A stretch of 11,007 bases of DNA, taken from positions 1 through 11,007 of IMG/VR virus record IMGVR_UViG_3300029577_000220. One strand, written 5' to 3'. The stretch is from a virus. Lineage: Duplodnaviria; Heunggongvirae; Uroviricota; Caudoviricetes. This document shows, one piece after another, positions 1-11,007 of the stretch (positions within the stretch are counted from its first letter, which is position 1; each line of letters opens with the position of its first letter). The translations under genes and the position numbers were made by a program. The notes under the pieces were generated by a model that was not told where the DNA came from, did no database searches, and saw nothing but the letters and a program-made list of their open reading frames with translations.

Positions 1-1505
1 TGGTCTCTCATCCTTCTCCACTGCTGTACAAAATATAGTCTTAGCGTGGGATAATTTCCGTTTTCCAAGCGGACCCCTTTTTGTCCTCCATTCGCCCTGC
101 AAACAGGGTAGCCAGTTGGCCGATAATCAGAAGGTGAGACGCTCATAAGCTCTTTGCTGATGGTGGCCGACAGTGCGTCTTCGGTCATTTCACCGATTCC
201 GTCTTCCATCTCGTCGAGCGCCTTTAGCGCCTCCTCCAGAGTCATTTCATCCGGCGCAGGAACAAAGCCAGACTCACTGTCTTTGGGCACTTCCGCACCA
301 TCTTTATTTTCTTTGCCTTCGACGTCTTCTTCAGTTTCCCCACGATCAGTATCGGAGTCCTCACCGCCATCACCATCGATGCCAGAGCCATAACCATCAG
401 AATCATCGGTATCTTCGCGAATACCATCGCCAGGTCTTGGAGCGCCAGTGCCATTGCTGCCATCATCATCGGTGTCAGAGTCACTTGATTTCATGCCGAT
501 AGCATCGGATTCTGGGGTGTCTCCTGACTCTTCGTGGCCTGCTTCTGTATATTTACTTTCTGTATCACTAATATCTTTAACGTGTGTAGGTAAGTCCTTA
601 TCTAATGAATCAGGCAAATCGGAATCCCCAGAATCTTCCTCTTCTGATGCATCATCTTCTCGTTCTTCCTTGTCATCGCCTTCGCCTTTGGCAGGCTTAG
701 ATGCAGAGTCACCATGAGACGGCTCGTCACCTGATTCTGGCGTTTCCTCGGACTCGTCTTTGCTCTCCGACGGCTTTCTGGCAGATGATTTAAGTTCTGG
801 TAATTTGCCCTCTGGCTTGTCTTTCATATCCTGCATGATTTGGGCTATAGCAGCAGCGACCTTCACGCAATCCTCAGTGTTCGACATATTGCGAACGGCC
901 ACGTCTATACCATGCTCCTTTAGTAAGGCTACCGGCCTCTCGATAAGGCGCCAGTGTTCTTCCATAAAATCGATGAAGGGGCTTTGTCCATCCCAGGCGC
1001 GGACGACCGGGCAAAGGAAGAATTTCAAAAACAATTCACGCTGGTCTCCGTGACAGGCTAAAACCGCTTCTGGTACTTTATTCCTGAAGTATTTGTCGAT
1101 AACCAGACTCTGTGTTGCAAGTAAATTACGCCGGGTTCCGTTAAAGACCTGCCCCATTCTGCGTTCAATAAAAACGTCTTCCAGCGCATTCCAAAGCCCC
1201 GTAGACGGAGCCTTTCCTCTTTCGCGCATCTGCATTGCGACTTTCGGTTCAGTAAAGAGAATATGGGCCACCTCATGGTCGAGAAAACCACGCACTGCGT
1301 TCATGAGGGTTGGCGACGCGTCGTCCGGTATAGATGGGATGTTTACCAGCACTGGTTCGCCGCGCCGGTTATAGCGGACATATGCTTCATTGCCTCGTTC
1401 TGCAACAGGTATTTGTTTACCTGAAAGCATCGCTACAACTCGTTTTACACAGTCGCGAAAATCCTGCACCTCTTTCAGTACAGCTTTGGTGGTTTTTTTG
1501 GACAT
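1..1505 (-). CDS. Large protein with N-terminal globular region followed by a ~200-aa D/E/S/G-rich acidic low-complexity linker; architecture resembles CobT-like (cobaltochelatase CobT / vWA-associated) proteins. Start ATG at 1503-1505; 3' end lies beyond the window start, so ~501 codons are in the window.
   Basis: Minus-strand frame set by ATG 1503-1505 is open to position 3 (translated by hand at both ends: MSKKTTKAVLKEVQDFRDCVKRVVAMLSGKQIPVAERGNEAY ... SPSDYRPTGYPVCRANGGQKGVRLENGNYPTLRLYFVQQWRRMRD). AAGGGA Shine-Dalgarno-like sequence ~8 nt upstream of the ATG. The Ser-rich plus-strand ORFs in the track (154..717) are antisense shadows of the acidic repeat region. Family assignment is from architecture only. 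Confidence 0.6.
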   Translation of the reverse strand, partial: MSKKTTKAVLKEVQDFRDCVKRVVAMLSGKQIPVAERGNEAYVRYNRRGEPVLVNIPSIPDDASPTLMNAVRGFLDHEVAHILFTEPKVAMQMRERGKAPSTGLWNALEDVFIERRMGQVFNGTRRNLLATQSLVIDKYFRNKVPEAVLACHGDQRELFLKFFLCPVVRAWDGQSPFIDFMEEHWRLIERPVALLKEHGIDVAVRNMSNTEDCVKVAAAIAQIMQDMKDKPEGKLPELKSSARKPSESKDESEETPESGDEPSHGDSASKPAKGEGDDKEEREDDASEEEDSGDSDLPDSLDKDLPTHVKDISDTESKYTEAGHEESGDTPESDAIGMKSSDSDTDDDGSNGTGAPRPGDGIREDTDDSDGYGSGIDGDGGEDSDTDRGETEEDVEGKENKDGAEVPKDSESGFVPAPDEMTLEEALKALDEMEDGIGEMTEDALSATISKELMSVSPSDYRPTGYPVCRANGGQKGVRLENGNYPTLRLYFVQQWRRMRD

Positions 1506-1558
1506 TAGAATTCCCTTGTTGTTAAAACAATTTGTTTTCTGATGTGCGTAATTTATCA

Positions 1559-1591
1559 CTGTACGAACAGGCATCTAATCTGTTCGTACAG
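1559..1591. promoter_or_regulatory. Perfect 12-bp inverted repeat CTGTACGAACAG-N9-CTGTTCGTACAG in the 5' leader/promoter region of the 1..1505 gene; candidate operator or leader stem-loop.
   Basis: Arms 1559-1570 and 1580-1591 are exact reverse complements; located 54 bp upstream of the start codon at 1505. Confidence 0.4.
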
Positions 1592-1605
1592 GCGCTAGAG
1601 AGGAT

Positions 1606-1618
1606 GGGAGGGGGGGGG
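1606..1618. repeat. Homopolymeric G tract (GGGAG followed by 8 G) between the stop of the 1619..1831 ORF and the start of the 1..1505 gene.
   Basis: Direct reading of 1601-1620: aggatgggag ggggggggtt. Confidence 0.6.
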
Positions 1619-1831
1619 TTAAATTGTGCGGACGGCTACTGAACCGCAGCCGGTATTGATGAGAGTGAAGCACTTGCCCTTTAGCTCAAAGATGTATGCG
1701 GTTGCGTCTTTCATGTCAAGTAACAAAGACTTTGTTGGCAGTTCAGTGAGTATGGCTGCTGCCCCATCATCGTCAATTGAAATCGTATGTCCGACCTCAA
1801 GGGCGATCAAATTAGAAGTTATTTTTTTCAT
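1619..1831 (-). CDS. Hypothetical small protein (70 aa), divergent from the HTH regulator gene.
   Basis: ATG at 1829-1831 (minus), weak GGATGA SD-like sequence upstream; shares a 247-bp AT-rich divergent intergenic region with the 2088..2477 gene. No recognisable domain. Confidence 0.3.
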   Translation of the reverse strand: MKKITSNLIALEVGHTISIDDDGAAAILTELPTKSLLLDMKDATAYIFELKGKCFTLINTGCGSVAVRTI

Positions 1832-2087
1832 TTCATATCATCCAACTGAACACGTAAATACCTTGCAATACTACTACCTATTGTATCAATACGGAATACT
1901 TATGTATCAAATACAACTTAGTTTTAAGTTCTTAAATGAGTTATTTTTTAGATAGTTGTCTATTAATGAAGCCTTTTGCGGTCAGTAAACCTATGTAAAA
2001 AAATAGATAAGTCTTTACAACACTAACCTTTGATGTAATATCAGTAAGCACTTACCAAATAAAATCAAAACACGCAGGTTGATAATT

Positions 2088-2477
2088 ATGGCTACCAACG
2101 AAACAAAAGAAGCTAAAGTAAGTCGCTACGCTGCTTACATTGACGCTTTAATCGCGATTTCTCCGAAAAGCCAGGCGACCATCGCGAAAGAAGCAGGCTA
2201 TAAAAACCCTAACAATCTTTCACTTATCAAGAGCGGCAAAATCCCGCTTCCGATCGACAAGGTCAGAGCGTTGGCTAAAGCATTGGATGCCGATTCGGTC
2301 CGATTGATGCTAATGGTGCTGGAAGAGCGTCATCCAGAGCTGTTAGCGTTTTTTCGCGACGAAGGCACAGCCCCTCTGACTAAAGATGAAAAACTAGTTC
2401 TGGAAGCCTTCCGTCGACGTTTCGGTGACCAACGTGGTGCGTCGGAGCGGGTTGTTGAGGCAATCAAGTCGCTATGA
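2088..2477 (+). CDS. XRE/Cro-CI-type helix-turn-helix transcriptional regulator (129 aa from ATG 2088; the track ORF begins at an upstream in-frame TTG at 2079).
   Basis: HTH_3-like segment SQATIAKEAGYKNPNNLSLIKSGKIPLPIDKVRALAKALDAD; AGGT ~9 nt upstream of ATG 2088; AT-rich upstream region; convergent with the integrase and overlapping its 3' end by 6 bp. Confidence 0.65.
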   Translation: MATNETKEAKVSRYAAYIDALIAISPKSQATIAKEAGYKNPNNLSLIKSGKIPLPIDKVRALAKALDADSVRLMLMVLEERHPELLAFFRDEGTAPLTKDEKLVLEAFRRRFGDQRGASERVVEAIKSL

Positions 2478-3575
2478 GAAATTTACACGGATTAGCTCAG
2501 TAGCGAGTCGATCTCCCTTGAACTTATGATCTATCTCCTCTAAATCCTGTTTCTCTACGATTGATGCGATGTACGCCGAAAAACTGTTTAAGGCGTCTCG
2601 CATCTCGTCTATATAATCGTGTCGATCGTATACTCGATCTATCCCCTCAAGACTGTGGTTCATAATTTTGCGGGATACCTCCTGACTTATGCCTAACGCG
2701 GGGAAGTAACTACGCGCAGTACGACGCAAATCTCGGGGAGTAAATGGCTCAAGCTCCATCAACTCTGGACGTTCTAAAATCCTTCTCAACGCCTGTGATA
2801 TGGCCACCTTAGACATTGGCACATCCTCACCCTGTTTCTTGTTTGAAGGAACAAGCCACTGGCTGCCTTTTCCGTATTTGATCAGCTCCTCAACACATTT
2901 GCGCATTAGCGGGCTTAATGGTAACGAGTGCTGGCGAGCCGATTTATTCCTCGTTCCTTGATTCCATAAATTATATTCGAGGTTGAATTCTGATCTTTTA
3001 GCTCGGAGCACTTCATCTGGTCGTCTGGCCGCTACAAGGCATAATCTGGCCGCCCACTTTGTACCCTCACATACGTTGAAGTAGTCCCATACATTCCAAA
3101 AGACCCAGACCTCTGCGTCGGTCAGTTTGCGCTCGCGCGGCGTGGGCTTCGCGCCACCGGCTACTCTGTTAAGCGACATATCGTTCAATGGGGATGTATC
3201 AATTAAGCCCTGAAATGCACACCAACTGAGAAACTGCTTCATCAGCGAGAACACACGTCTGCCCTGGACGATCTTGCCCTCAAGTATTAATGGGTTCACC
3301 AGCTGGTTGACTAAAACCCTACTAATATCACTTACTTTTACTTCACAGATATGCGGCATTACATGTATCAAAATACAATGAACAGCTATTTCAGGTCGAC
3401 GTCTCGTTATCAGCAAAGATAAGCGAGTGAATAACATGAATGCGGAAGAAAACGACATATCACCGTCGAAATTGGTGGTCGACACTGCTGACAAACCGGA
3501 AGCGCGTTCGAGATACTCGATGGCTTCTCTAGAGGTGTTTTCTGCTGCGCGTGCTTTATCAAAAGTGTTTTTCAT
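2472..3575 (-). CDS. int: Tyrosine recombinase/integrase, P4-like family, lacking the N-terminal arm-binding (DUF4102-type) domain; possibly a truncated remnant.
   Basis: C-terminal catalytic region FTPRDLRRTARSYFPALGISQEVSRKIMNHSLEGIDRVYDRHDYID matches the integrase box II / R..Y architecture; core-binding region ISRVLVNQLVNPLILEGKIVQGRRVFSLMKQFLSWCAFQGLID matches the P4-integrase core-binding pattern. The region upstream of 3575 (3576-3874) is AT-rich and non-coding, so no arm-binding domain is encoded. Confidence 0.85.
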   Translation of the reverse strand: MKNTFDKARAAENTSREAIEYLERASGLSAVSTTNFDGDMSFSSAFMLFTRLSLLITRRRPEIAVHCILIHVMPHICEVKVSDISRVLVNQLVNPLILEGKIVQGRRVFSLMKQFLSWCAFQGLIDTSPLNDMSLNRVAGGAKPTPRERKLTDAEVWVFWNVWDYFNVCEGTKWAARLCLVAARRPDEVLRAKRSEFNLEYNLWNQGTRNKSARQHSLPLSPLMRKCVEELIKYGKGSQWLVPSNKKQGEDVPMSKVAISQALRRILERPELMELEPFTPRDLRRTARSYFPALGISQEVSRKIMNHSLEGIDRVYDRHDYIDEMRDALNSFSAYIASIVEKQDLEEIDHKFKGDRLATELIRVNFS

Positions 3576-3672
3576 AGTCCACTCACTGAGTGAAGCCTGT
3601 TTTTACTGTATTTATAAACAGTATGTTAGGCCTAAGTTTTGTATGATCAACAGTAAAATAGACTGTTTTTGA

Positions 3673-3707
3673 AAATGATTCCATACCTTACAAGTATGGA
3701 ATCATTT
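3673..3707. promoter_or_regulatory. Perfect 14-bp inverted repeat AAATGATTCCATAC-N7-GTATGGAATCATTT in the integrase upstream region; candidate operator/recombinase-binding site.
   Basis: Arms 3673-3686 and 3694-3707 are exact reverse complements; the arm core GTATGGAATCAT recurs at 5326-5337 and 6346-6357. Confidence 0.45.
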
Positions 3708-3874
3708 ATATAGCTTACGTAAATTCTGAATAAATTATGTAGACAAACCATCTTAAACGCTAAATAGTAAAAAGCGCCTAATAACGCCAACTTTGGAATG
3801 CCATCTGAGCCAGATTGATGAGAATGATTTGTTAGAAGAAAAAGAATGATGAAGAAGATGACGATCGCTAAAGT

Positions 3875-4291
3875 TCAGCTAGAATGGAAACCTTCTGCGA
3901 CTTCAGCGAAGTAGCTGAGCAACCTAGTATCTCTTGCTGGCATACGATCGTGAGCTGGAGTGACTAGCCCCATCAGCAAAAAACGCCCGCTATCCCACAT
4001 GTGCTCGGTATAAACGAGATAGTGGTTTGAGGTTCGGTTGTAGTTCTCTTGCCTTGCGTTCCAGGTAAGCTGGAAATGCAAATTGACGTGAATATGCTGG
4101 ACATTAGCATCAACGGCGAACGGCGGGAAGTCAAATGGCGCATCTCGTCCAAGAAGATTAGATGGTGCGCCAGTTGATTTGTAAGTAATGAACTCGGATT
4201 TGAGCTGACTTTCTAGGTCAGGGTAAACGACAAAAGTGGGCTGAAAAAAATCATCCCACGTAACTTGACTGTATTCAGCCGTTAATGCCAT
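3875..4291 (-). CDS. YafO-family toxin (ribosome-dependent mRNA interferase type), 138 aa.
   Basis: Block-wise resemblance to E. coli YafO recalled from memory: FITYKSTGAPSNLLGRDAPFDF vs FISYKRDGVLPDIFGRDALYDD; VQHIHV vs VAHIHL; RTSNHYLVYTE vs RTNDEAHLVYCQ; FLLMGLVTPAHDRMPARD vs WLLIAILKPEPHKLARD; AEGF vs AEAF. Start ATG 4289-4291 overlaps the upstream gene's last codons by 10 nt. Confidence 0.7.
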   Translation of the reverse strand: MALTAEYSQVTWDDFFQPTFVVYPDLESQLKSEFITYKSTGAPSNLLGRDAPFDFPPFAVDANVQHIHVNLHFQLTWNARQENYNRTSNHYLVYTEHMWDSGRFLLMGLVTPAHDRMPARDTRLLSYFAEVAEGFHSS

Positions 4292-4830
4292 TTAGCCGCA
4301 GCCTTGTTGCCAGTCTCTAATAGATGGTTCATGGCTAAAAGGTTGACACCAGAGTCACGCACTACAGAAGTGCGTGTAATCTGATCAATCAGATTGAGAT
4401 AGTTTTTGGTCGCAATACTGACCATTTTAATAGCCTTAAAAAACGCAAACTCAACAGTGTTTTTTTCGTAAGACATGATGACGTCTTTTTCAGGTAACAT
4501 CAAAACAAAAGATTCTGCGATACCGGCTACATGAATAGTTTGATTCTTAATTTCTTCCGCTACTTTGATAGCAGCAAAGAAGTCAGTGTCAGCATAATGA
4601 GCAAGTTCAGCGCGGCTTGAACGCAGTTCTTTAGCCAATTCATTGAGAGCAGCTGTAAGATCACTGATGTCGGTTTTGTTGACTCTAGCGCCCATCTCAT
4701 AAACCCGTTCTACAATCGTAGGCTGACACGCAACCGCTTTGGGTTGCGGCTGGATACTGGCAAGAACCAGTGCCACTGCTGCCTGCAAATGCTGGATTTT
4801 AAATTTCACGATAGACTCCATAATCGTCAT
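4282..4830 (-). CDS. Hypothetical 182-aa protein translationally coupled to the YafO-like toxin; putative cognate antitoxin/partner, not YafN/RelB-like.
   Basis: ORF with ATG at 4828-4830; stop TAA 4282-4284 overlaps the start of the YafO-like gene; no recognisable RelB/DinJ/YafN-like sequence and roughly twice the size of YafN. Confidence 0.6.
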   Translation of the reverse strand: MTIMESIVKFKIQHLQAAVALVLASIQPQPKAVACQPTIVERVYEMGARVNKTDISDLTAALNELAKELRSSRAELAHYADTDFFAAIKVAEEIKNQTIHVAGIAESFVLMLPEKDVIMSYEKNTVEFAFFKAIKMVSIATKNYLNLIDQITRTSVVRDSGVNLLAMNHLLETGNKAAAKWH

Positions 4831-4908
4831 TTCTCGACGAAGCGTAGCATTCTACTACTGAACTTAACTATAAGCTAAAAAAAGTTGGTTGCATATGCGA
4901 CTTGATAG

Positions 4909-4929
4909 CAAAAAGGGGCCGAAGCCCCT
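4909..4929 (-). terminator. Rho-independent terminator downstream of tRNA-Asn (minus-strand sense GGGGC-UUCG-GCCCC followed by UUUUU).
   Basis: Plus strand 4910-4932 aaaaaggggccgaagcccctttg: 5-bp GC stem, UUCG tetraloop on the minus strand, T-run on the minus strand (A-run 4910-4914 on plus). Confidence 0.55.
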
Positions 4930-5005
4930 TTGGATTTTGCGCTGAAAAAAGTGTTGCTACGATGCTTAGAAGCAATGGTTAAAAAACGTCTGCCGTGTCT
5001 ATCAC

Positions 5006-5080
5006 AGCGCTGAACGGTCTGGCGACATTTGCGGAGTCTTTCGTTCGGACGGTGGTGGCGAATCCAAACCGTTCAGCGCT
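5006..5080. other. Long hairpin: 13-bp perfect inverted repeat (AGCGCTGAACGGT / ACCGTTCAGCGCT) enclosing 49 nt, immediately 3' of the tRNA; possible structured RNA or degenerate tRNA-like element.
   Basis: Arms 5006-5018 and 5068-5080 are exact reverse complements; the enclosed sequence does not fold as a cloverleaf by hand. Confidence 0.35.
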
Positions 5081-5084
5081 ATGT

Positions 5085-5159
5085 TGGCGATGGTGGGTGG
5101 ACTCGAACCACCGACCAGTTGATTAACAGTCAACCGCTCTACCACTGAGCTACACCATC
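5085..5159 (-). tRNA. tRNA-Asn (anticodon GUU), 75 nt with encoded CCA.
   Basis: Minus-strand sequence GATGGTGTAGCTCAGTGGTAGAGCGGTTGACTGTTAATCAACTGGTCGGTGGTTCGAGTCCACCCACCATCGCCA folds by hand: acceptor GATGGTG/CACCATC, D-stem GCTC/GAGC, anticodon stem GTTGA/TCAAC with loop CTGTTAA, T-stem GGTGG/CCACC with loop TTCGAGT, discriminator G, CCA. Confidence 0.85.
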
Positions 5160-5408
5160 ATTTTCGCGGCGGTACTAGCTTATGGACAACCAGGCAGCCA
5201 GAAACTTTCCCGTAACTTGCACTTTACGTTAGTGCCAGACGAGGTATGTGGCTCGCTCATATGAGCGAAGATCTCGAATCTTTCTCGGTGGTTGATTGCC
5301 GTTAGATTCTTCGATCTTATTGGATGTATGGAATCATACATGTTGTGAAGCCAGGGGCAATAAAGGCAACAATGTTTTCACTAGAGGGTTAATTAATCCT
5401 GCTTTCAC

Positions 5409-5518
5409 AACGTTGAGATCACTGAACCGATTAATGTTCAACCCAACATATTGATCAGTCGCTACAGCTATGTGGAATCGCCTGTATGATTTTAAGAAAA
5501 ATCAGTGATCTCAACGTT
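5409..5518. repeat. 17-bp perfect inverted repeat (AACGTTGAGATCACTGA ... TCAGTGATCTCAACGTT) separated by 76 bp in the non-coding region between the tRNA and the small-gene cluster; candidate structured ncRNA, origin-like element or MITE-like remnant.
   Basis: Arms 5409-5425 and 5502-5518 are exact reverse complements; no convincing ORF in 5160-5900. Confidence 0.4.
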
Positions 5519-5883
5519 ATGTGCTGACTAACCAAGTCAGCCGGGTTACGTCGCCGCTTTTAACCCAAGTATAAACGACATAAGTAATGGAAATGACGTA
5601 ACAGAATGGACGGTCAGCTGAAACCGGGATGGGTGAATGGAATGATGAAACCAACCGCCCATTCTGTTACTTCATTGAATGGGGCATGGATGGTGCAATA
5701 TGCCCTATTCTGCGTTCTGCAATCACACTCGCTCAGTGTGTCCCATTTTGGTGACGAGGCTGGAAACTGACCTCGCTGGTGTTTGGCTTCTTAGGCTACT
5801 GCCAGGTATGCATCTTCGTTTGCAGTTATATTTAACGTTCAAACAGTCGCATCTCAACGAAAACAAAGTGATCTTATACATAT

Positions 5884-5909
5884 TAGATAAGTAAGTAAAT
5901 ACTTATCTA
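5884..5909. promoter_or_regulatory. Palindromic site TAGATAAGTA-AGTAAA-TACTTATCTA overlapping the stop of the 5903..6208 gene; shares the 11-mer ATAAGTAAGTA with sites at 10811-10821 and 8582-8592 (reverse complement).
   Basis: 10-bp arms 5884-5893 and 5900-5909 are reverse complements; the 11-mer recurs at two other loci, both 5' of minus-strand genes. Confidence 0.4.
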
Positions 5910-6208
5910 TCTGTGATGCGTTTAGTTGCTATCTTTTTGATCAGGCTCCCCTTTTGTTCCGAAGTTCTCATGATGATGGCGGTAAAACGCTTCGCTTGAA
6001 TAGTGATAGTTTCGTTTTCCTTGAGTTCGCCGTAATGCGTCTCTAACAGGGACCCCAGACGCCACAGACCGTCGTCTATGCGTTTATGGCTGGCGAATCT
6101 GATCAGCAGTAGCTTTACGATTAACTGACCAATGTAAAAGGCAAATCCGAAGCCGGCCGCCACAAGGTAGGTTGCCAGCCACCAGTCGAAGGAAGTCAAA
6201 TTGCTCAT
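5903..6208 (-). CDS. Hypothetical small membrane protein (101 aa).
   Basis: ORF with ATG 6206-6208; hydrophobic segment WWLATYLVAAGFGFAFYIGQLIVKLLLI; start overlaps the stop of the upstream 50-aa ORF (ATGA). Confidence 0.5.
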   Translation of the reverse strand: MSNLTSFDWWLATYLVAAGFGFAFYIGQLIVKLLLIRFASHKRIDDGLWRLGSLLETHYGELKENETITIQAKRFTAIIMRTSEQKGSLIKKIATKRITDR

Positions 6209-6357
6209 TTTCGCACTCCCGTCTCGTGAACAACCCGATACACACGCTTACCGACACGAAGTGTTTTGGTTTGCAGTTCCTGCTGGACCAGGGCGCGGCA
6301 GATTGCGAGGCCGAGGCCCACGCCACCAGTAAAAGATAAAATGATGTATGGAATCAT
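6205..6357 (-). CDS. Hypothetical 50-aa protein with a hydrophobic N-terminus (MIPYIILSFTGGVGLGLAICRALVQQ...); not in the supplied ORF track (below the size cutoff).
   Basis: Hand translation: ATG at 6355-6357 overlaps the TGA of the 6357..6569 gene (TGATG), and its own TGA (6205-6207) overlaps the ATG of the 5903..6208 gene (ATGA). Confidence 0.3.
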   Translation of the reverse strand: MIPYIILSFTGGVGLGLAICRALVQQELQTKTLRVGKRVYRVVHETGVRK

Positions 6358-6569
6358 CAGTGCGCCCCCGCCTCAGTCAATTGCTGCAACAACAAATAAC
6401 CTTTTTCAGTCAGTTGATAGTTCTCAATACATCCCTTTGGAGAAACGTTGGCGACAAGATTCATGCGCTCCAGTTTGGCTCTGGTCTTCGGCTTCCAGTT
6501 GGCGTAGAACTCCTTCCACTTGCTGATTTCACGCAGGGTTTCCTTCTCTCGTTTACTTAACATGCTCAT
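6357..6569 (-). CDS. Hypothetical small soluble protein (70 aa), Lys/Glu-rich, possibly DNA-binding.
   Basis: ORF with ATG 6567-6569; embedded in the overlapping gene chain downstream of the ligase. Confidence 0.45.
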   Translation of the reverse strand: MSMLSKREKETLREISKWKEFYANWKPKTRAKLERMNLVANVSPKGCIENYQLTEKGYLLLQQLTEAGAH

Positions 6570-6729
6570 CCTTAATCTCCTTCAGTGTGTCCGTGATATC
6601 TACTATGCGATAAATACGACCTCGCCTTTGCATGACACCGGCTTTTACGTAATCGTGGATACAGCTGGACATAACCAGACTTCCGATAACAATGCCGACG
6701 ACTAAAAATACAAACATCCAGCCGAGCAT
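6553..6729 (-). CDS. Hypothetical 58-aa protein with an N-terminal transmembrane helix (MLGWMFVFLVVGIVIGSLVM...); not in the supplied ORF track.
   Basis: Hand translation: ATG at 6727-6729 shares one base with the ligase stop codon (TGATG); TAA at 6553-6555 lies inside the start of the next gene. Confidence 0.3.
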   Translation of the reverse strand: MLGWMFVFLVVGIVIGSLVMSSCIHDYVKAGVMQRRGRIYRIVDITDTLKEIKDEHVK

Positions 6730-8051
6730 CATTCTTTATCTCCAATACGATCTTCGGTATCTCGAAGACATTTAGGCCACTTCAGACGTGGATGACGCAA
6801 GCTACCATCTGGCGTTTTCTCATGGCAGTGAACCTCAACGATGCGTCCACGATACTTCTCCTGATTGTTCCAGATTTCATCCAGGTATTTATGCTTGATA
6901 CCGCTGGCACGAACGATGACGCCGTTCTCCAGACGAATCACTATCTTGCCTAGCGTATGCGCAAATCCAGAATCCGGATCGCCAGGCTCGAAGTCGATGA
7001 TTTCACCGTCTTCTGAATCCTCGTCTTTCAGCTTCCACCAGCTGCGGGTACGTTTGAACTCGTAAACTGAATCCGGATCTTTGCCCATCTCTCCCTCTTC
7101 ATTCTCGTCCAGTCGCTTCATGAAACGTTCGATGAAATCTTCGTGGCTATGGATGATGTAGAACGGATGAAGGTGGATATCTTGCGCATAATCTTCCACG
7201 CAAGTGTTGCGGAACAACGCCACCAGCATAGCCAGGCGCTCTTTCAGCTTCATACCGGTCTTCAGGTACTCTTTGCTTTTTGCTTGAGCACGCCACTCCG
7301 GTAAGAAGAAATCGAAAATGTGGTAAACGGCACCAATGGCTTTCACGTTCTTCTTACGAAGCGCCGACACTGACTGGTTGAATGTACCTGCAGTGCCCTC
7401 TCCATCGAAGAAGATGTGATTGAAGCCGGAGAGTCTGCCCCGCTCCAGCATGGCTGGTTTAAGGTGATCGAGTGACGTAATCGGATTGCCGGTGCGCGTC
7501 AGGAAATTGACCTCACCCTCGTCCACGATGACTTCGCAGATAACCCGGAGACCATCGAGTTTGAGACTGCCGATCATTGGCCACTTGGCCTTTGGATTTG
7601 GTTTAAATGGGTATTTGTCGCCTTTCTCCTTGTACGGAGACGCCAGCTGTACCTCAAACTTCGGAATTGGGTTTTCGAACACCTTGTTGCACAGGCTGAT
7701 GCCGACACCGGCTTTCGGATCTTTCAGCAGGAAGCGACGAAACACGTCCTGCCCGTCAGCGCACATCGAGGCAACGAGTGATTCGACAGCAGCAATAGCG
7801 ATGTTCCCGGTCAGTTCGCGCGCTGCCAGCTTCTCCAGCAGATCTACTACCTTCTGGTCGCTGGGTACGGAAGTATCGAGTGGCTCGGCCACTTTGTACT
7901 TCTTCACACCGAATCGAATGAATGGATTGAGCATTAGCGAGACCATGCTCTGTTCAAATTCATCCAGATTGGCCAGCGCCTCTTTCTTGGCGTTGGTTCC
8001 CATCGTTTTAATAGCATCCAGCTTGTGCTTTAGGGCGATCAGTTTTTCCAT
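6729..8051 (-). CDS. ATP-dependent DNA ligase, T7-like (phage-type), 440 aa, with an ~80-aa N-terminal extension.
   Basis: Nucleotidyltransferase motif I KLDGLR; motif III FFDGEG; motifs IV-V EGEMGKDPDSVYEFKRTRSWWKLK (compare T7 ligase EGLIIKDP...SGWWKMK from memory); C-terminal motif VI TPDGSLRHPRL...RD. GGAGG Shine-Dalgarno 9 nt upstream of the ATG at 8051. Confidence 0.9.
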   Translation of the reverse strand: MEKLIALKHKLDAIKTMGTNAKKEALANLDEFEQSMVSLMLNPFIRFGVKKYKVAEPLDTSVPSDQKVVDLLEKLAARELTGNIAIAAVESLVASMCADGQDVFRRFLLKDPKAGVGISLCNKVFENPIPKFEVQLASPYKEKGDKYPFKPNPKAKWPMIGSLKLDGLRVICEVIVDEGEVNFLTRTGNPITSLDHLKPAMLERGRLSGFNHIFFDGEGTAGTFNQSVSALRKKNVKAIGAVYHIFDFFLPEWRAQAKSKEYLKTGMKLKERLAMLVALFRNTCVEDYAQDIHLHPFYIIHSHEDFIERFMKRLDENEEGEMGKDPDSVYEFKRTRSWWKLKDEDSEDGEIIDFEPGDPDSGFAHTLGKIVIRLENGVIVRASGIKHKYLDEIWNNQEKYRGRIVEVHCHEKTPDGSLRHPRLKWPKCLRDTEDRIGDKE

Positions 8052-8085
8052 TAGTGTTTAACCTCCATCGGTCGCTCGGGAGTTT

Positions 8086-8574
8086 TCATGTGTTTTCTTT
8101 GGTTGCTTCTTCAATGAGTGCCGCGTACACGTCAGTGACCGGCGCCAGTGAATCGGTGGGCTTGGTTTCGGATTTAGCAGGTTCTGTTTTCTTCGTGCGA
8201 TGAATAAGACTGTCAATTGTCGCGGTGTTTCGCTTCCGGGGGAGCGTTCTGGCATGGTCGTTTTGCTCTTCCACTTCTTTGATAAGTGAAGACATATCGA
8301 TGAAGTAGAGCTGTTCGTCTTTGCGGATCTCTTCGACCATCATTTTCAGTGCCTGACATTTACCAGCAGCAATAGCCGCAGCGCAGGACTGGAACGATGT
8401 AGCCGGGAGACGTTTTTCTTTATAGGCGAGGATCGTGTGTTGGCAGACTGTATAGCTGCAATGAGCCTCATGGCCGTTGAGCTTCACTTCCGGGCAGCGC
8501 AGCGAATAACCGTTGTTTCCGGAGATAGACGGGATTTTCGACAAATCTGTTCTTGTGGACATGCTTCTAACCAT
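8086..8574 (-). CDS. Hypothetical Cys/His-rich protein (162 aa), putative zinc-binding, immediately upstream of and co-oriented with the DNA ligase.
   Basis: ORF with ATG 8572-8574; segment CPEVKLNGHEAHCSYTVCQHT plus CAAAIAAGKC; 34-bp gap to the ligase start. Confidence 0.55.
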   Translation of the reverse strand: MVRSMSTRTDLSKIPSISGNNGYSLRCPEVKLNGHEAHCSYTVCQHTILAYKEKRLPATSFQSCAAAIAAGKCQALKMMVEEIRKDEQLYFIDMSSLIKEVEEQNDHARTLPRKRNTATIDSLIHRTKKTEPAKSETKPTDSLAPVTDVYAALIEEATKENT

Positions 8575-8599
8575 AATCTTGTACTTACTTATTAATCGC

Positions 8600-8627
8600 A
8601 GTTTAAAGAAGCCCCACGAGGGGGCTA
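8600..8627 (-). terminator. Candidate rho-independent terminator after the IS-interrupted gene (minus-strand AGCCCC-CUCGU-GGGGCU followed by a U-rich tail).
   Basis: Plus strand 8610-8626 agccccacgagggggct; the A-rich stretch on plus (8601-8609) gives UCUUUAAA on the minus strand. Confidence 0.4.
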
Positions 8628-8643
8628 AATGTTTTATCGAGGC

Positions 8644-9099
8644 TTACCAGGTCGCCCAGCCAGTCATTTTGTCCTGAGCAGCTTCGAACCGGTATGGGTC
8701 CAGTAAATCGTTGGTACGATGAACGGCGTAGGATTTGGCTTCTTGTTTAATCATGGGTAATTCGTTGGCCAGACGAGCCACTTGCCCTGCAAAACTGGCG
8801 AGTACTCCGTCACATGCCTGACCCACGTCGACAATGATGCGCACCAGGTCTAAGTCGCTGCGGCACATATCGCAGATAATGCCGTATTCCACCTCACGAA
8901 TGCGCTCAACGGCTTTTTTGATATCGCCACTGACCACCAATTCCAGCAAACCAGGTGGAGTTGTCAGATCTGTTACGCGCTCGGTAACTTCAGACTGTTC
9001 GACAATACTCAGGAACGCCGCGATGGACGGGTCATCCGCCACACCAGCTCTGACTTTGAGCGTGCGAAGAGTTGCGTCGACAATATCCTCAAACCGTTC
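8644..9099 (-). pseudogene. 3' portion (151 codons) of a ~270-codon gene interrupted by IS629; product unknown.
   Basis: The track ORF 8644..9042 (GTG start) extends in frame, with no stop, up to the IS boundary at 9099 (ERFEDIVDATLRTLKVRAGV ADDPSIAAF...). The frame is continuous with the fragment at 10410..10769 once the IS and one TTC copy are removed. Confidence 0.7.
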
Positions 9100-9153
9100 T
9101 GAACCGCCCCGGAAATCCTGGAGACTAAACTCCCTGAGAAAGAGGTAAACAGG

Positions 9154-9480
9154 ATGACTAAAAATACTCGTTTTTCCCCCGAAGTCCGTCAGCGGGCGAT
9201 TCGTATGGTTCTGGAAAGTCAGGATGAATATGACTCACAGTGGGCGGCAATTTGTTCCATTGCCCCAAAGATTGGCTGTACGCCGGAGACTCTGCGTGTC
9301 TGGGTTCGCCAGCATGAGCGGGATACCGGGGGCGGTGATGGTGGGCTCACCAGCGCTGAACGTCAGCGTCTGAAAGAGCTGGAACGTGAAAATCGTGAAC
9401 TGCGCCGCAGTAACGATATCCTTCGCCAGGCTTCCGCTTATTTTGCGAAGGCGGAGTTCGACCGCCTCTGGAAAAAATGA
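9154..9480 (+). CDS. IS629 transposase OrfA (HTH and leucine-zipper part), 108 aa.
   Basis: [23 protein letters not shown]... is typical of IS629/IS1203-group OrfA; ends ...LWKK* at the A6 run 9472-9477, the expected -1 frameshift window. Confidence 0.9.
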
Positions 9481-10367
9481 TGCCACTGCTGGATAAGCTG
9501 CGTGAGCAGTACGGGGTCGGACCGGTATGCAGCGAACTGCATATTGCCCCGTCAACGTATTACCATTGTCAGCAACAGCGACATCATCCGGATAAACGCA
9601 GTGCCCGTGCGCAGCACGACGACTGGCTGAAGAGAGAGATACAGCGCGTATACGATGAAAATCATCAGGTGTACGGTGTGCGTAAAGTCTGGCGTCAGTT
9701 GTTACGGGAAGGAATCAGGGTGGCCAGATGTACAGTGGCACGTCTCATGGCGGTTATGGGACTTGCCGGTGTTCTCCGGGGTAAAAAGGTCCGTACGACC
9801 ATCAGCCGGAAAGCCGTTGCCGCAGGCGACCGCGTAAACCGTCAGTTCGTGGCAGAACGACCTGACCAGCTGTGGGTGGCTGATTTTACTTACGTCAGCA
9901 CATGGCAGGGCTTCGTCTATGTGGCGTTTATCATTGATGTGTTTGCCGGATACATCGTGGGGTGGCGGGTCTCATCGTCTATGGAAACGACATTCGTGCT
10001 GGATGCGCTGGAGCAGGCGTTGTGGGCCCGTCGTCCGTCTGGCACCATCCATCACAGCGATAAAGGCTCTCAGTATGTGTCACTGGCCTATACGGAGCGA
10101 CTAAAAGAAGCCGGATTACTGGCATCAACAGGGAGTACAGGCGACTCGTATGACAACGCGATGGCTGAGAGCATCAATGGTCTTTACAAAGCGGAGGTAA
10201 TACACCGTAAGAGCTGGAAAAACCGTGCAGAAGTGGAACTGGCCACACTAACGTGGGTGGACTGGTATAACAATCGACGATTGCTGGGAAGGCTGGGCCA
10301 TACTCCTCCGGCAGAAGCAGAAAAAGCTTATTATGCTTCCATCGGAAACGATGATCTGGCAGCCTGA
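9477..10367 (+). CDS. IS629 transposase OrfB (DDE/rve catalytic domain), 296 aa; expressed as an OrfAB fusion by -1 frameshifting.
   Basis: rve-type motifs [58 protein letters not shown]; overlaps orfA by 4 nt in the -1 frame. Confidence 0.9.
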
Positions 10368-10409
10368 GTTCACAGATAAAACACTCTCCAGGAAACCCGG
10401 GGCGGTTCA

Positions 10410-10769
10410 TTCACCTTCATCGCACACAGTCTGATTGGTGTAGACAGTCTGATTAGTGTAGACAATGCGACCGTCGTACCATGCACCGATACTCACTTCG
10501 ACCGTTGCGTCTTTCATCTCGCGAGAGAACGCCACAAGTGCCGCGCGTTTCTGCTTAACACCTGACAACTCCGGGGACTCTCCAAAACGAACCCAGACCT
10601 GCATGTATTTCGAGCCTTCCGAAAGAGGTACGGTGCTCACGGACGTGGCGATATGCTCCAGTGCAGTTTGGATCGCCTCGTCGATAATCTTCTGGCGCTC
10701 TTCTGTATCAATTTCTACGCCGGATTTGTCGATGATGTCGCAGACTAACTTCTGAAATTCTTCTTTCAT
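10410..10769 (-). pseudogene. 5' portion (120 codons) of the IS629-interrupted gene; its promoter and RBS are intact.
   Basis: ATG at 10767-10769 with AGGAG 7 nt upstream; the ORF runs into the IS629 right end, where it meets a stop supplied by the IS terminal TGA (10407-10409). Confidence 0.7.
10428..10463. repeat. 18-bp tandem duplication (AGTCTGATTGGTGTAGAC / AGTCTGATTAGTGTAGAC) inside the interrupted gene, encoding VYTNQT twice.
   Basis: Units 10428-10445 and 10446-10463 differ at one position; in frame. Confidence 0.6.
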
Positions 10770-10809
10770 AGCAACTCCTGACTAACAGATGAAAATATTC
10801 TTTCAGAAA

Positions 10810-10831
10810 AATAAGTAAGTATCTACTTATT
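10810..10831. promoter_or_regulatory. Palindromic site AATAAGTA-AGTATC-TACTTATT in the promoter region of the interrupted gene; same motif family as 5884-5909.
   Basis: 8-bp arms are reverse complements; contains the 11-mer ATAAGTAAGTA; ~40 bp upstream of the start at 10769. Confidence 0.4.
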
Positions 10832-10861
10832 ATATCGGGCACAATAGTCTGCTATACGAAG

Positions 10862-11007
10862 AAGCCAGGCGTAAAAACTACTCGGATGCACATCCAGCAC
10901 CCGACAAAGCAGTCGGACAGGCCAGCAATAGGTGTTGCATTGACAGATTGAATCTACAACGGCTTTTTTTAATATGTCCCGTTCGTCGGTAACCCGCTTC
11001 AGCTCTT
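10862..11007 (-). mobile_element. Fragment of a second, different IS3-family element (OrfA C-terminus to OrfB N-terminus junction region); continues beyond the right window edge; inner boundary uncertain (between ~10833 and ~10865).
   Basis: Minus-strand translation ELKRVTDERDILKKAVVDSICQCNTYCWPVRLLCRVLDVHPSSFYAW shows the OrfA-type ...ILKKA and the OrfB-type LCRVL.V..S.(Y/F).W motif (compare IS3 MCRVLRVARSGWYTW from memory); A7 run at 10964-10970 lies at the expected frameshift window. Not IS629 (sequence differs from the in-window copy). Confidence 0.45.

Follow-up and report, generated by a model that had tools for sequence, protein, structure and literature searches.

Phase-variable promoter tracts are well known from Neisseria, where poly-G runs lie between the -35 and -10 elements of porA and opc, and from Bordetella pertussis, whose fim promoters carry a C-stretch. 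Such tracts separate the two promoter elements, or the -10 from an activator site, and a single base gained or lost thus alters the geometry of the promoter. Inverted repeats as control sites are exemplified by the CIRCE/HrcA operators, in which a 9-bp inverted repeat stands on either side of N9 and which are thought to work both as DNA operator and as RNA hairpin, and dispersed operators by those of the phage P1 C1 repressor, many asymmetric 17-mers scattered over the phage-plasmid genome. In phage lambda, the cro-nutR-tR1 region holds a Rho-dependent terminator with C-rich loading sites flanking a hairpin. The cobT leader described here, found in an 11,007-nt stretch of viral DNA (IMG/VR record IMGVR_UViG_3300029577_000220, positions 1 to 11,007; hereafter the window), shares features with each of these systems and departs from each in others. 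Are its G-run and its inverted repeat then parts of one regulatory device? We argue that they are two unrelated things in one interval. Taken as a whole, the reading that we prefer, and regard as probable though far from secure, is that the G-run is a recent neutral slippage tract and that the repeat, with its 12-9-12 layout, is a putative protein-binding control site at the cobT promoter. The first-pass annotation of this interval had proposed a tract prone to length variation that could modulate expression, next to a candidate operator; in our hands the variation is real, a switch is unlikely, and an operator is plausible, but as another kind of repeat.

To judge from its sequence matches, the window belongs to an SSU5/pHCM2/pMT1-type phage-plasmid, an assignment based on its plasmid matches, on E. 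coli hits that are all plasmid-borne and on the match to phage SSU5. Region 1300-1900 matched 268 plasmid records, 45 of them at least 95% identical (E. coli, E. fergusonii, Shigella and one Enterobacter) and the remainder mostly 80-90% identical (Enterobacter, Yersinia pMT1, Salmonella pHCM2, Citrobacter, Klebsiella); most are non-mobilizable IncFIB replicons of ~100-115 kb, and in complete E. coli genomes 33 of 33 matches lie on plasmids. The identity of the window to pHCM2, pMT1, SSU5 and others ranges from 77 to 90% with the same gene order throughout, the SSU5 match (89.6%) ending just past the G-run. For the near-identical plasmid pToe3-1, RefSeq gives the minus-strand order tyrosine recombinase, an opposite-strand gene (an XRE-family regulator by annotation in some records), a 70-aa hypothetical protein, a 'cobaltochelatase CobT-related protein', an AAA ATPase and dnaE.

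The window contains the corresponding genes for the recombinase (367 aa; 2472-3575, minus strand), the XRE-type regulator (phrog_8; 2079-2477, plus strand) and the 70-aa protein (phrog_2627, function unassigned; 1619-1831, minus strand, annotated in relatives), followed by the CobT-related gene (1-1505, minus strand), the first of the cobT/AAA ATPase/dnaE cluster, of which the N-terminal 501 codons are present and the rest lies beyond the left end. The latter has a Pfam CobT match at E=1.3e-35, an ATG at 1505-1503 on the minus strand and a ribosome-binding site, AAGGGAA, read from the sequence at 1511-1517 on the same strand, where AAGGA or AAGGG is kept in all clades; CobT relatives beyond the SSU5 supergroup fall to ~35% identity or less. 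The structure model of the 70-aa protein was unusable (pLDDT 46.7), and the recombinase has no sequence relatives in the PDB. Between the TAA stop of the 70-aa gene (1621-1619), which touches the G-run, and the cobT start lies an intergenic region of 113 nt (1506-1618) that holds both the G-run and the inverted repeat. This region was read in 20 annotated plasmid or phage records and in 84 loci found via the CobT protein; further alleles came from DNA-pattern matches in metagenomes and IMG/VR, and a scan of genome contigs contributed 4 loci only.

Several other features of the neighbourhood may be recorded here. Compared over window positions 1640-5080, phage SSU5 (JQ965645 36500-45200) is without the entire segment from the tRNA-Asn to the end of the 70-aa gene, which comprises the recombinase, the XRE-type regulator, the minus-strand ORFs 3875-4291 and 4282-4830 (one of them a YafO-family toxin by annotation in the related plasmid pRHB41-C15_2) and the 70-aa gene, and it retains the inverted repeat, the predicted promoter and cobT. 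On this comparison SSU5 would appear to derive from a deletion that removed a putative module for lysogeny or maintenance. The tRNA-Asn (GTT; 5085-5159, minus strand), kept in relatives, forms one edge of the deletion. The AT-rich stretch that separates the 70-aa gene from the divergent regulator gene (1832-2078) carries repeated TGTATCAA(A)TAC-like motifs and has the look of a genetic switch with operators of its own. In or beside the minus-strand ORF 10407-10769 lies an 18-bp tandem repeat, ACAGTCTGATTAGTGTAG, of 2.2 copies at 95% identity (10426-10464).

The candidate operator had been described as a 12-bp perfect palindrome. Nowhere in 1490-1660 does a contiguous perfect palindrome exceed 6 bp; what stands there instead is a perfect inverted repeat (1559-1591) with 12-nt arms, CTGTACGAACAG at 1559-1570 and CTGTTCGTACAG at 1580-1591, and a 9-nt spacer at 1571-1579. 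Each arm by itself is self-complementary at 10 of 12 positions. For this 12-9-12 repeat the idea of an operator is reasonable, given its deep conservation, its constant geometry and its position around the predicted -35. None of 200 shuffles matched the repeat, even when 3 mismatches were allowed, and all the SSU5-supergroup clades that were fetched have it: the E. coli sublineage to which the window belongs, the Enterobacter/Citrobacter/Salmonella pHCM2-type, pMT1, Cronobacter, Cyrano-type E. coli, the Klebsiella-type, SSU5, Kluyvera and Buttiauxella. In 19 distinct variants the arms are complementary at 97.8% of their positions, the spacer is always 9 nt, and the distance to the next conserved element is 3 nt in all clades. 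Two adjacent pairs have changed on both arms (T-A/A-T to C-G/G-C; TA to CG) in the Cyrano-type and Klebsiella-type clades, so that dyad symmetry is conserved beyond the flanks, the adjacent spacer being unalignable.

The repeat is also unique. The complete plasmid pRHB41-C15_2 (106,982 bp) has one copy; within the window no further arm copies occur at up to 2 mismatches, and in the 107-kb genome arm hits at this threshold are single and scattered, with no second paired site, from which it follows that the repeat is not a regulon motif. One-sided substitutions fall ~8:1 on the promoter-distal arm, as though the promoter-proximal arm were under a further constraint at the DNA level. Several familiar identities were tried and set aside. 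The arms read CTG-N6-CAG and 1559-1591 offers no CTG-N10-CAG register, as a LexA (SOS) box would; an intrinsic terminator would call for a G+C-rich stem with a U-tract after it, where the sequence here is UGAUAAAUUACG. A generic scan found no terminator-like sites in 1400-2100, and Rfam 15 gave no match up to E=1 on either strand of 1300-2100.

What would such a repeat act upon? Downstream of it on the sense (minus) strand we predict an extended -10, TGATAAATT (TG-n-TAAATT, with GATAAA as an alternative; 1550-1558), at a constant 3 nt from the repeat, and, inside the repeat spacer and 17 nt ahead of TAAATT, a weak -35, TTAGAT (1573-1578), which we infer from its position. All clades have TG-n-TAnnnT directly downstream of the repeat, its T, A and T unchanged, and the 'TT' of the -35 is the only well-conserved part of the repeat spacer. 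A generic promoter scan did not call this promoter, because its -35 is weak (2-3 of 6 positions match). Support for the assignment comes from a paralogous unit at position 79187 of pRHB41-C15_2, TTGACG-cc-TTATTCGTACAAC-GATAAT, which aligns base for base with the cobT leader, TTAGAT-gc-CTGTTCGTACAGT-GATAAA. The promoter-proximal repeat arm and the spacer of the paralogous promoter have TTCGTACA in common, and the proximal arm would accordingly be promoter-spacer sequence as well. Transcription of cobT would then start at about 1543-1545, which would place the repeat at about -48 to -16. As a side observation, the consensus RNA fold of the predicted 5' UTR (1506-1545, sense, 14 clades) pairs ACAUCAGAA with UUCU-AUG; such pairing would sequester the cobT start codon, but covariation is weak and the model gives only a hint of it.

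On this model the weak -35 would sit between the two repeat arms, in an extended -10 promoter for the cobT/AAA-ATPase/dnaE cluster, and the repeat would be a DNA-level site for a symmetric protein, dimer or tetramer, controlling this single promoter. With 21 bp, or two helical turns, between the arm centres, an unvarying geometry and a single copy per genome, it reads most likely as a control site at the DNA level. Candidates for the protein are encoded nearby, namely the XRE-type regulator (2079-2477) and the 70-aa protein; at 33 bp the repeat is large for a simple helix-turn-helix dimer. A formal parallel is CIRCE, with which the cobT repeat shares a fixed 9-bp spacer at a (predicted) promoter. 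It differs from CIRCE in sequence (CTGTACGAACAG versus TTAGCACTC), in having 12-bp arms, in occurring once per genome and in bracketing the -35, whereas CIRCE lies downstream of the start site.

A second element of the leader has quite another distribution. The 15-bp palindrome AAAACAATTTGTTTT (1524-1538), a putative leader element or shared operator, lies between the predicted transcription start and the ribosome-binding site, at about +5 to +20 relative to that start, and AAAACAAnTTGTTTT, as it may also be written, falls 20 bp downstream of the interval singled out by the first-pass annotation. In pRHB41-C15_2 it occurs in 8 copies at up to 1 mismatch and in 14 at up to 2 (shuffles, 0.0 and 0.3), that is, at 14 or more sites genome-wide, many of them beside promoter-like sequences. 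At 8 sites a -10-like hexamer (GATAAT, TATTAT, GAAAAT or similar) stands 11-13 nt upstream, where a random position would have one in just 12% of cases, and just downstream come a ribosome-binding site and an ATG; in the Cyrano-type clade a second copy precedes another gene. These sites look, from their layout, like a family of paralogous promoter/operator units, and the palindrome is a better candidate than the 12-9-12 repeat for a shared operator, possibly that of a general phage-plasmid regulator. In its 14 or more sites and their promoter-like surroundings it recalls the P1 C1 operators, from which it differs in being symmetric and in its unrelated sequence; the 12-9-12 repeat stands outside this dispersed, P1-like set. 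The searchable literature holds nothing on start sites, protein binding or expression in the SSU5-type family, nor on either motif, and the phage-plasmids of a 2026 preprint on heteroresistance belong to an unrelated family.

Upstream of the repeat, conservation takes a different form. The spacer that separates the 70-aa stop codon from the repeat (1592-1618, minus strand), in which the G-run lies, cannot be aligned from one clade to another, but its sense strand is C-rich and G-poor in every case: in the window it has 18 C and 2 G in 27 nt, and 13 other variants add up to C=125 and G=27 in 292 nt, in a genome with 23.5% C and 25.5% G. The C minus G value of each spacer falls in the upper tail of genome windows. 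The G-run is an extreme form of this conserved compositional bias, which indicates, at the level of composition, that the region bearing the run is not wholly free of constraint; one possibility is that the bias serves Rho loading.

From here it is a short step to the strongest of the alternatives, an RNA-level one, which we consider doubtful but worth weighing: the C-rich spacer would load Rho on transcripts reading through from the 70-aa gene, the 12-bp hairpin would be a pause or protein-binding structure, and the whole would be a terminator/antiterminator akin to lambda cro-nutR/tR1, leading from a switch-region gene to a replication operon, with a read-through that tract length could tune. 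The spacer is C-rich and G-poor in 14 of 14 variants in spite of its unconserved sequence; the hairpin, stable by prediction, is the sole feature of the centroid fold and is recovered by RNAalifold; and the gene order is lambda-like, with an XRE regulator, a small divergent gene beside it, a spacer with a hairpin and then replication genes. The substitution record speaks for both sides, since five one-sided transitions retain G-U pairs on the sense strand whereas three break the pairing there, 5 versus 3 amounting to no significant strand bias. Other observations weigh against an RNA element. The ~8:1 arm bias is not what a stem would produce, because a stem would constrain both arms equally and a promoter-embedded proximal arm would not; the loop length is invariant; the C-rich stretch, at 12-32 nt, is short for Rho loading; no U-tract follows the hairpin; and SSU5 retains the element though the upstream gene is deleted. 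The likeness to lambda also has its limits, for there is no similarity to boxA or boxB, no N-like protein was identified, and the promoter is predicted to lie inside the element. A related notion, that the pyrimidine-rich spacer pairs with the ribosome-binding site, was dropped, the pairing being seen in a single-sequence fold but not in the consensus fold of 14 clades.

The run itself was correctly described at the outset as a 13-nt G-rich stretch, GGGAG plus 8 G, about 100 bp upstream of the CobT-like start: it matches exactly at 1606-1618 on the plus strand (GGG at 1606-1608, A at 1609, G9 at 1610-1618), ~104 nt from the start codon. On the sense strand it reads TAA-C9-TCCC, directly after the stop of the 70-aa gene. 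Runs of G9 arose in 3 of 200 dinucleotide-preserving shuffles of the window. The tract alleles of all 45 close plasmids were inferred from alignment length and identity, and pure G-runs proved to be confined to one E. coli sublineage and, within it, to a minority of records: G7 in 2 plasmids, G8 in 3 plasmids and one IMG/VR genome, G9 in the window and 3 E. fergusonii plasmids, and G10 in pToe3-1. The others are interrupted (~30 of the 45 plasmids, 3 of 3 metagenome contigs and most IMG/VR contigs of the sublineage), chiefly as G6TG (~16 plasmids, two metagenome contigs and two IMG/VR contigs), as G5TG in three duck isolates, and in the remaining interrupted forms as G4TGTG and G4TGGTG. The nearest outgroups, SSU5 and L009, have GGGGGCGAGCGGTGGTA at the position of the tract, and all other clades have no G-run and unrelated sequence there. 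The carriers of G7, G8, G9 and G10 are otherwise plasmids of at least 99% identity, and the tract is therefore not invariant across isolates; in this respect the expectation of length variation was right.

How did the run come about? The homopolymer is derived, by T-to-G changes in a G-rich stretch, and its length has altered since. In sense-strand terms it would have arisen through point changes in a spacer that was already C-rich, the likely series being CACCACCCC to CACCCCCC to C8, and the later steps from G7 to G10 would be due to replication slippage. Changes in tract length would affect neither a reading frame nor the spacing of the -35 and -10. Since it lies outside any ORF and outside every element with a critical geometry, the tract is, on its sequence context, most likely a neutral slippage-prone one and not an expression switch.

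The opposite proposal, that slipped-strand changes in the G-run switch or tune the CobT-like operon in the manner of the Neisseria and Bordetella tracts, would make the locus a contingency locus. Part of what defines such a locus is indeed present: at G9 (1610-1618) the run exceeds the ~7 nt that such tracts need, it is rare by chance, it lies upstream of the gene and its promoter, and as a G/C homopolymer of 7-10 nt it varies in length between close relatives. The part that matters for function is lacking, as the tract is neither within a reading frame nor between promoter elements. It lies about 35 bp from the predicted 17-nt -35/-10 spacer (1556-1572), at about -63 to -75 relative to the inferred cobT start, and what lies upstream is the coding end of the 70-aa gene, with no activator site evident whose spacing would matter. 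No conserved ORF runs across it. In contrast to the Neisseria and Bordetella tracts, then, that of cobT is upstream of promoter and repeat alike, just after a stop codon, restricted to one lineage and usually interrupted, and a classical slippage switch is unlikely because the run is outside any ORF and outside the predicted -35/-10 spacer. Groups of epidemiologically linked isolates, moreover, have one allele each (G9 in three RHB41-type records, G8 in two records of 69,882 bp, G5TG in the three duck isolates), and this sharing of tract length argues against rapid on/off switching. The earlier suggestion that the tract modulates expression consequently finds no support in the anatomy: the tract comes after a stop codon, where the intergenic region is least conserved, some 45 bp ahead of the predicted -35; all other clades lack it, and in most members of its own sublineage it is interrupted by T. 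All told, we hold a contingency locus to be distinctly improbable.

Two further roles for the run were discarded by eye: it might have been the ribosome-binding site of an antisense ORF (1626-1955, plus strand), whose start codon is not conserved in other clades, or a canonical G-quadruplex, for which four G3 tracts are lacking even at G10. The sole other G/C run of at least 7 nt in pRHB41-C15_2 is a C8 run at position 8296, within hsdS, the specificity-subunit gene of a type I restriction-modification system (CDS 7790-9127), and that one, unlike the tract in the cobT leader, could be a genuine phase-variable tract.

Might the length differences be no more than long-read homopolymer errors around a true tract that does not vary? 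Nanopore and older PacBio consensus sequences are known to be weak at homopolymers of 8 nt or more, and since the tract lengths come from consensus assemblies, single-base differences could in part be assembly errors. As a full explanation, an assembly artefact is nonetheless unlikely, and we rate its chances as poor as those of the contingency locus: independent assemblies of linked isolates agree exactly, and the single allele per linked group argues against assembly noise; the substitution alleles (G6TG, G5TG, G4TGTG, G4TGGTG), which cannot have arisen as homopolymer miscalls, show length steps too; and metagenome and IMG/VR contigs give consistent alleles.

The most far-reaching combination of these ideas would make the spacer, the hairpin or repeat, and the promoter a single undescribed control node of the SSU5 type, joining Rho-dependent read-through to an operator, with a C-run that slippage can tune in this sublineage. 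If true, the node would link the cobT/AAA/dnaE replication operon to the genes of the lysogeny switch, and the length of the C-run would alter the expression of replication genes, and hence copy number or induction, between lineages; we regard this as very unlikely. About as unlikely is the proposal that the 12-9-12 repeat is a core site of the loxP/FRT/rox kind for the nearby tyrosine recombinase, resolving phage-plasmid multimers, for although it is a 33-bp element in a single copy per genome, with perfect inverted arms whose 12 nt fall within the 11-14 bp of such sites, and with an asymmetric, variable spacer of constant length, and the recombinase gene is only 0.9 kb off, syntenic in nearly all clades and without a recognisable arm-binding domain in its product, the 9-bp spacer exceeds the usual 6-8 bp, the arms are unrelated to those of the 14-7-14 repeat described next, and the latter, more typical, as well conserved and near the recombinase gene, is the better candidate.

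On the recombinase side, a perfect 14-7-14 inverted repeat, AAATGATTCCATAC-CTTACAA-GTATGGAATCATTT (3673-3707), lies ~100-130 bp upstream of the tyrosine recombinase gene; its arms, ATGATTCCATAC, are invariant in nearly all loci checked and its 7-bp spacer varies between clades, features that make it a candidate lox/FRT-like target of the recombinase. A LexA-type SOS box, TACTGTATTTATAAACAGTA (CTGT-N8-ACAG; 3604-3623), stands ~45 bp upstream of the recombinase start codon, and its CTG-N10-CAG frame is kept in nearly all loci checked, which suggests SOS control of the recombinase.

To return to the preferred reading of a neutral tract beside a putative control site, the G-run appears to be ordinary mutational noise, and the conserved cis-elements around it appear undescribed, though of known kinds. 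Phage-plasmids of the SSU5/pHCM2/pMT1 type occur widely among Enterobacterales, with Y. pestis and S. Typhi among the hosts, and increasingly carry resistance genes, and the searchable papers contain nothing on gene regulation in them. Three conserved cis-elements have emerged from the present comparison, namely the unique 12-9-12 repeat, the shared 15-bp palindrome, and the lox-like site together with the SOS box at the recombinase gene, and these offer starting points on how such phage-plasmids control their replication and choose between the plasmid state and the lytic one.
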